From IMG/VR virus record IMGVR_UViG_2563366944_000005: DNA of 23,570 bases. One strand, given 5' to 3'. The position numbers and the translations under genes were made by a program. The DNA is from a virus (taxonomy: Duplodnaviria > Heunggongvirae > Uroviricota > Caudoviricetes). How positions within the stretch are numbered: position 1 is the stretch's first letter; each line of letters begins with the position of its first letter. The notes beneath the pieces were generated by a model. The model made no database searches. It was not told where the DNA came from and saw only the letters and a program-made list of their open reading frames with translations. Of this stretch, positions 8,394-8,564 are shown piece after piece.

Positions 8394-8564
8394 ATGTCAG
8401 AACGTAAAAACTCAAAATCACGCCGTAATTATCTCGTTAAATGTTCCTGCCCAAACTGCACCCAAGAGTCAGAACACAGTTTTTCAAGAGTACAAAAAGG
8501 TGCCCTTTTGATCTGCCCTCATTGCAACAAAGTATTCCAGACAAATCTTAAAGCTGTAGCCTGA
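8394..8564 (+). CDS. small zinc-ribbon protein (about 56 aa; CPNC...CPHC), possibly ynfQ-like
   Basis: Track ORF 8343..8564 trimmed to the internal ATG with AGGAAA SD; two CxxC pairs; followed by a bidirectional terminator. Confidence 0.5.
   Translation: MSERKNSKSRRNYLVKCSCPNCTQESEHSFSRVQKGALLICPHCNKVFQTNLKAVA

Follow-up and report, generated by a model that had tools for sequence, protein, structure and literature searches.

What is the short reading frame that lies between the holin gene and the cold-shock genes of this prophage, and what could its product do? In the window, that is, the whole 23,570-nt stretch of DNA that was analysed, the frame runs from ATG to TGA over 56 codons. Its product is MSERKNSKSRRNYLVKCSCPNCTQESEHSFSRVQKGALLICPHCNKVFQTNLKAVA, with a CPNC pair at C19 and C22 and a CPHC pair at C41 and C44. 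An earlier note on this DNA had described a frame of about 56 residues with two such pairs, preceded by an AGGAAA Shine–Dalgarno sequence and situated between the holin gene and cspB, and all of this is borne out (Table 1). The frame is almost certainly ynfU (b4776). RefSeq places this gene, with the product "putative zinc-binding protein YnfU", at exactly these coordinates, both in K-12 and in the record that is 99.5% identical to the window. A 451-bp query around the frame is 100% identical to E. coli K-12 and has matches in 1,651 of 5,426 complete E. coli genomes; among the matches listed, all are annotated "ynfU: putative zinc-binding protein YnfU". The protein scores 107.3 bits against the Pfam family PF23499 "YnfU" (cut-off 27; model positions 1–49 of 49) and 79.4 bits against the NCBIfam family NF038384 "YnfU family zinc-binding protein" (cut-off 36), and at 56 residues with two CPxC knuckles it has the form that marks the family (about 50–60 residues and two such knuckles). 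It agrees with YnfU of E. coli K-12 (WP_211180497.1) in protein sequence, coordinates, length, CPxC...CPxC motif and position in the Qin prophage, and it shows no difference from the family, of which it is the founding member.

The gene is already known: it has a name, an annotation and families of its own in Pfam and NCBIfam, and its translation was published in 2019, which makes it ordinary as a finding. Weaver et al. (bioRxiv 10.1101/511675) detected YnfU by ribosome profiling with stalled initiation complexes; by means of a chromosomal SPA tag, the protein was confirmed in exponential- or stationary-phase cultures grown in LB at 37 °C. Of all the new proteins in that study it was the most abundant under these conditions, and it alone had a recognisable motif, "a pair of zinc knuckles". 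PIRT-seq detected it independently, so the frame recognised in the earlier note is a real translated protein. Later papers mention YnfU only as one case of a small, putatively metal-binding protein, or as the neighbour of a polymorphism. A paper on silver-nanoparticle evolution lists an intergenic ynfU/cspB polymorphism, present at low frequency in one of its evolved lines, which we considered as a functional clue and set aside as uninformative on function. Our literature search found no functional study of YnfU.

The window is a Qin-type lambdoid prophage, fuller than the Qin remnant of K-12. Its genes are, in order, portal, terminase, nohA, ynfO, ydfO, gnsB, ynfN, ynfR, ymcF/ynfQ, cspI, rzpQ, rrrQ, ydfR and essD, followed by ynfU, cspB, cspF, the Q antiterminator, ydfU, rem, hokD and relBE, and then dicA/dicF/dicB. 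Genes for portal, head–tail joining, large terminase and replication protein O, together with an ISNCY transposase fragment, lie in positions 1–4000 and 15033–19524. The closest match to the whole window is E. coli isolate AF3 (99.5%). Rfam models above their gathering scores include the sok antitoxin RNA (16150–16321, beside hokD) and the DicF small RNA (21773–21824), both expected for a Qin-type prophage.

Table 1. Positions of ynfU, its neighbours and the signals around it in the window
Feature	Positions	Strand	Basis or remark
ynfU coding sequence (56 aa plus stop)	8394–8564	+	ORF and translation, RefSeq annotation, Pfam and NCBIfam scores, purifying selection
Holin gene essD/essQ	7959–8174	−	Divergent from ynfU
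cspB	8928–9143	−	Convergent with ynfU
cspF	9444–9656	+	Third member of the recurrent ynfU/cspB/cspF module
Shine–Dalgarno sequence AGGAAA	8383–8388	+	Sequence; 5 nt before the ATG
Conserved promoter-like element GTGTACTGT (family consensus GTGTATGGT)	8358–8366	+	Alignment of 80 upstream regions
Putative −10 hexamer TACTGT	8361–8366	+	Within the conserved nonamer
Putative −35 hexamer GAGAAA (family consensus GAGCTA/AAGCAA)	8338–8343	+	17 bp upstream of the −10; inferred from the alignment of 80 upstream regions
Alternative sigma-70-like site TTGAAA-18-AATAAT (10 of 12)	8306–8335	+	Consensus scan; Escherichia-specific
GC-rich terminator hairpin AAACCCGC-CTGA-GCGGGTTT	8627–8646	.	Canonical on the minus strand (cspB/late transcript), weak on the ynfU strand

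Conservation was assessed in 80 species loci, with one genome taken per species. An intact frame of 51–60 residues with an ATG start is present in every one of them. The two Cys pairs singled out in the earlier note are conserved throughout: C19, C22, C41 and C44, and also H28, are invariant in 80 of 80 loci, and C17 is present in 78. Pairwise dN/dS has a median of 0.12, and codon positions 1, 2 and 3 show variabilities of 0.19, 0.08 and 0.40, respectively. A short ORF in an A+T-rich spacer could in principle be a chance reading frame of an intergenic region. This is next to impossible here, as translation has been shown by two independent methods, the product matches curated families, and the intact frames, invariant residues and low dN/dS together indicate that ynfU is more than chance. 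A 73-residue version beginning at an in-frame start at 8343 was also considered and rejected, because the upstream extension is not conserved in other genera.

The YnfU family is small and appears to be limited to enteric bacteria (Enterobacteriaceae and relatives). A word-indexed search of 5.8 billion proteins returned 49 YnfU clusters, and those with a credible organism name were Enterobacteriaceae. A full HMM scan of 1.84 billion representative proteins gave 44 matches at E ≤ 1e-3, of which the convincing ones were all stand-alone proteins of 50–100 residues, and this profile search tied YnfU to no larger characterised family. Three long proteins from the search (P0054, P0068 and P0070; 578–3,179 residues) match only positions ~37–54 of the YnfU model, in up to 34 stretches, and appear to be repeats of a CPxC-knuckle segment rather than relatives of YnfU. 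Four loci (L008, L031, L044 and L046) and one protein (P0003) come from assemblies named Veillonella, Vagococcus, Kocuria, a Bacillota MAG and Azospira. In L008 the Qin genes of E. coli are present at near-identity, so that contamination or mis-binning is a likelier explanation than true hosts.

The earlier note had placed ynfU beside csp paralogs, and this link proved to be widely conserved. The CspB and CspF proteins of the window were compared by tblastn with the 80 species loci, and a csp gene was found within ~1.3 kb of ynfU in 55 of them. When the loci were grouped by shared flanking DNA into 25 distinct contexts, ynfU was csp-linked in 18. With about nine csp genes per 5-Mb genome, chance adjacency of ynfU and a csp gene is estimated at well under 1%. 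The commonest arrangement, that of the window, is ynfU(+), a cspB-like gene (−) and a cspF-like gene (+), which occurs in 23 loci; ynfU with a convergent cspB-like gene alone occurs in 12, and ynfU followed by a cspF-like gene on the same strand in eight. No csp neighbour is present in the other 25 loci, or beside the distant family members. Together with a conserved promoter element (see below), the breadth and independence of this synteny are modest new information.

The wider surroundings of ynfU vary. In Klebsiella, Enterobacter and Kosakonia the gene lies among ordinary, non-prophage chromosomal genes; the neighbours include a tautomerase, an ArsR-type regulator, HSP20 and genes of PTS and amino-acid metabolism. 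In one Kosakonia locus (L086, CP051488.1, 5314–5781), the small heat-shock gene HSP20 is convergent downstream of ynfU in place of csp. A YnfQ/YmcF-like or cspI-like gene lies immediately upstream of ynfU in some genera, and in Kluyvera and Scandinavium loci (L057, L075 and L076) a ynfQ/ymcF-like gene stands alone beside it. The second half of the "cold-shock island" of the window, on the minus strand at 5197–6402, comprises cspI, ymcF/ynfQ, ynfR, ynfN and gnsB. The two halves are contiguous in some genera, whereas a lysis cassette separates them here; in two Citrobacter loci (L012 and L016) the gnsB–cspI block abuts ynfU with no lysis cassette between.

How ynfU is transcribed bears on what this neighbourhood means. 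Alignment of the 80 upstream regions revealed CAGGA(A/G) at the Shine–Dalgarno position in essentially all loci and a conserved nonamer further upstream. In 44 of the 80 loci the exact form GTGTAYKGT stands at a constant distance from the ATG, and elsewhere in 630 kb it occurs only three times. The element is also present in a distant family member (L092). We infer that the nonamer would be the −10 region of a putative promoter belonging to ynfU itself, with a predicted start near 8373 and a leader of ~20 nt. An A-rich (A/T-rich) tract precedes the putative −35 hexamer. The alternative site at 8306–8335 scores better as a sigma-70 promoter than the conserved element, yet it is absent from other genera, and the number of sigma-70-like sites in the region equals the chance expectation. 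The short leader folds no better than shuffled sequences (z = −0.8).

A perfect 7-bp inverted repeat, CTGTATA-N8-TATACAG, at 8363–8384 overlaps the putative −10 hexamer, runs into the Shine–Dalgarno sequence and is Escherichia-specific. Two roles were considered for this region and rejected. The repeat is not a LexA box because, on inspection, its spacing is CTGT-N14-ACAG, not N8. An RNA switch or thermometer in the 5′ UTR was dismissed on the grounds that the repeat is found in Escherichia only and the leader folds like shuffles.

These signals bear on the proposal that YnfU is a cold-inducible regulator of the cold-shock response, like YnfR and YnfQ/YmcF, which are encoded beside cspI and cspG. 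The conserved csp neighbourhood and the YnfQ/YmcF-like or cspI-like genes directly upstream of ynfU in some genera are consistent with it, as are the strong cold induction of YnfR beside cspI and the description of ynfQ as cold-shock induced. However, the anatomy of the ynfU gene somewhat disfavours this reading: ynfU converges on cspB and has no leader of the cspA type, and it is already well expressed at 37 °C. Convergence means that ynfU and cspB are not co-transcribed; ynfQ and ynfR, by contrast, follow cspI on its own strand. In an Rfam scan of the window, the cspA thermoregulator (RF01766) matches only on cspB (8912–9304) and cspI (6017–6402), so that no long 5′ UTR of this type was found at ynfU; the leader of ynfU itself is short and has no significant structure. 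A cspF-like gene is the sole neighbour in several Klebsiella loci. To our knowledge, CspF-type proteins have been reported not to be cold-inducible. A literature search for ynfU expression under cold shock or other stress found no mention in the texts, and the label "regulator" is speculation. We therefore regard this proposal as rather unlikely.

A homology to YnfQ and YmcF, which had also been suggested, does not hold: YnfU gave no BLASTP alignment with them and an hhalign probability of 1.7%, and we rejected the relationship for want of sequence or profile similarity. The resemblance is one of setting. YmcF and YnfQ, beside cspG and cspI, are likewise Cys-rich, putatively zinc-binding proteins of ~60 residues, adjacent to csp genes in the same kind of island (the copy in the window is at 5845–6033). 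They are encoded downstream of csp on the same strand and annotated as cold-induced, whereas ynfU has its own putative promoter and converges on cspB.

What kind of protein, then, is YnfU? With 6.4 kDa, a pI of 9.6 and a net charge of +7, it is very probably a Cys4 zinc ribbon. C19/C22 and C41/C44 would make up two zinc knuckles around a single Zn2+ and so keep a small ribbon of four strands in place, and the nearly invariant SEHSF-R-QKG would form the hairpin after the first knuckle. An AF2 model has four short strands, which agrees with a zinc ribbon, but its mean pLDDT is only 64. Distant members of the family (~40–50% identity) keep the four knuckle Cys, mostly the "EHS" and the C-terminal "LF", and have lost C17, which argues for a Cys4 site in which C17 is not a ligand.

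Similarity to known zinc proteins is remote. A profile search of PDB sequences gave marginal matches to the DNL finger of Tim15/Zim17 (E=0.013), archaeal L44e (E=0.032) and PA0128 (E=0.54). The pattern C-x2-C-x3-[ST]-x-H-[ST]-hydrophobic-S...KG is common to YnfU, L44e/eL42 and DNL zinc fingers; since all of them have it, the SEHSF...KG stretch is probably a structural signature of this ribbon subtype and not an active site. YnfU shares the local form C-x2-C-x3-[ST]-[ES]-H-[ST]-hydrophobic-S ... K-G with the DNL finger (Zim17/Tim15/Hep1) and the first knuckle of L44e/eL42, and with Tim15 additionally L-I-x-CPHC, but it has neither the DNL motif nor the long insertion between the knuckles of eL42, so that the likeness suggests a common ribbon subtype and not membership. 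Against the zf-DNL model (PF05180) it scores 13.5 bits, below the cut-off of 27, and the second knuckle, CPHC, is followed by NKVFQT in place of a D-N-L motif. The N-terminal ribbon of PhnA/YjdM (PA0128, PDB 2AKL) is likewise a two-knuckle structure and is the top Foldseek match of YnfU, though a weak one (E=0.6); a moderate modelling match of YnfU to PA0128 was also reported by Weaver et al. (bioRxiv 10.1101/511675). PhnA, however, has an extra C-terminal domain, and the match falls below every threshold (hmmsearch E=0.54; 22.4 bits against 30.8 for PF08274).

Charge is the other constant property. Orthologues are strongly basic in 80 of 80 loci, with net charges of +6 to +8 and pI values of 9.4–10.0, and the first 16 residues contribute +3 to +5 of this charge as a tail. 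YnfU is thus a translated, selected, basic small protein with four Cys and a conserved csp neighbourhood. We hypothesize that the basic, disordered N-terminal tail (RKxSKxRRNYLVK) and a basic face of the ribbon could bind nucleic acid, most likely RNA, and that the protein might act beside proteins of the CspB/CspF type, its gene being conserved with theirs as a module. On this view YnfU would be a micro-protein with an accessory role in RNA binding and not a transcription factor of the classical kind, and nothing in the evidence calls for cold induction. Binding of RNA or nucleic acid with the Csp module is the leading reading, though a tentative one, based on charge, fold class and neighbourhood. 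Several observations speak against it. Zinc ribbons bind proteins as often as nucleic acids. The most distant members lack the basic tail, csp neighbours are missing from 25 of the 80 loci and from the distant members, and in E. coli the convergence of ynfU with cspB precludes co-transcription.

YnfU could instead be a protein-binding zinc ribbon, a small adaptor or escort on a larger protein, for which RNA polymerase, a chaperone or a Csp could be considered. Its models would be YacG, which binds gyrase, and the DNL-type zinc fingers (Zim17/Hep1), which escort Hsp70. The best PDB sequence match of YnfU is the Tim15/Zim17 finger, whose pattern C-x2-C...S-x-H-T-M-S...KG-x-x-L-I-x-CPHC resembles it, and an HSP20 gene is its convergent neighbour in Kosakonia. 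According to Weaver et al. (bioRxiv 10.1101/511675), larger proteins are the expected binding partners of most small proteins. However, the HSP20 neighbour occurs in one context only, the zf-DNL score is half the cut-off and the D-N-L motif is absent, and ribosomal L44e matches the pattern about equally, which indicates that it is probably a structural signature of the ribbon. We consider such an adaptor unlikely.

In a more specific form of the Csp-module reading, a conserved ynfU/cspB/cspF module of enterobacteria would have YnfU as a third, obligate-like partner, which would bind RNA or Csp proteins and tune the chaperone activity of the Csp proteins. This is quite doubtful. If true, it would represent a new class of Csp cofactor, captured together with csp genes by Qin-type phages. 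The csp synteny, the conserved promoter element and the uniformly basic protein amount to a concrete hypothesis of interaction with RNA or Csp proteins, which would contribute a little to the understanding of the non-essential csp paralogs and of the "cold-shock islands" in cryptic prophages.

The position of ynfU in the prophage could point to a phage-centred role. In E. coli the gene occupies an accessory slot of Qin-type lambdoid prophages, with the antiterminator Q on one side and the lysis cassette on the other, and is read against the late operon; in the inducible phages HannyBb, Tritos, 2H10 and PhiR42_1 it likewise lies between Q and the holin gene on the opposite strand. It shares with the lambdoid morons found between Q and the lysis genes the same slot, a (putative) promoter of its own, a nearby terminator hairpin and expression in the lysogen. 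As a moron, YnfU could serve superinfection exclusion or defence, or its gene could damp leaky expression of lysis genes, since it is transcribed against the late operon immediately upstream of the holin gene. In a Klebsiella phage, ynfU is directly beside a non-homologous putative holin gene.

Most orthologues in the species loci, however, lie outside prophages among ordinary chromosomal genes. Unlike the morons, ynfU, usually together with its csp partners, also has a chromosomal position in many genera, and this indicates that it is not specifically a phage gene. Among the 80 species loci, a homologue of the window holin adjoins ynfU only in Escherichia-type Qin prophages and in Superficieibacter; the adjacency is a prophage-specific context and not a family-wide one. 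No anti-phage defence family among the PADLOC models matches YnfU at E ≤ 1, and the PHROGs gave no significant match. A role of transcription alone fits poorly with the strong purifying selection on YnfU. A moron function is thus very unlikely. The deposited annotation of HannyBb (L002, PP925841.1, 4538–5260) shows tiny hypothetical ORFs between ynfU and Q and no cspB or cspF, whereas tblastn found both genes there at 100% identity; their absence from the record looks like an annotation artefact.

Downstream, ynfU had been described as ending at a bidirectional terminator. A hairpin is present, 63 nt past the ynfU stop and ~280 nt past that of cspB, but only half of the description is supported. 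The consensus scan calls a terminator on the minus strand alone, where six U residues follow the stem as a canonical U-tract, whereas the ynfU strand offers only UUU, and these residues are part of the stem. The stem AAACCCGC...GCGGGTTT, with varied loops, is also present in Escherichia, Citrobacter, Raoultella/Klebsiella and Superficieibacter loci, where the csp strand has the better terminator in every case.

The gap between ynfU and cspB (8565–8927) contains ~280 nt of unannotated DNA between the cspB stop and the minus-strand terminator, so that the 3′ UTR of cspB may be long. The minus strand has another, weaker terminator-like site at 8733–8749, and a small RNA derived from the 3′ UTR or a tiny ORF in the gap is possible. 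The gap is 363 nt here, ~75–165 nt in Lelliottia and several Enterobacter, and of similar or greater length in Citrobacter. An IS200C element (tnpA) has inserted between ynfU and cspB in at least four E. coli genomes, for example in L097 (NZ_CP063515.1), in the region corresponding to window positions ~8600–8900, and this insertion cuts the 451-bp query into two pieces.
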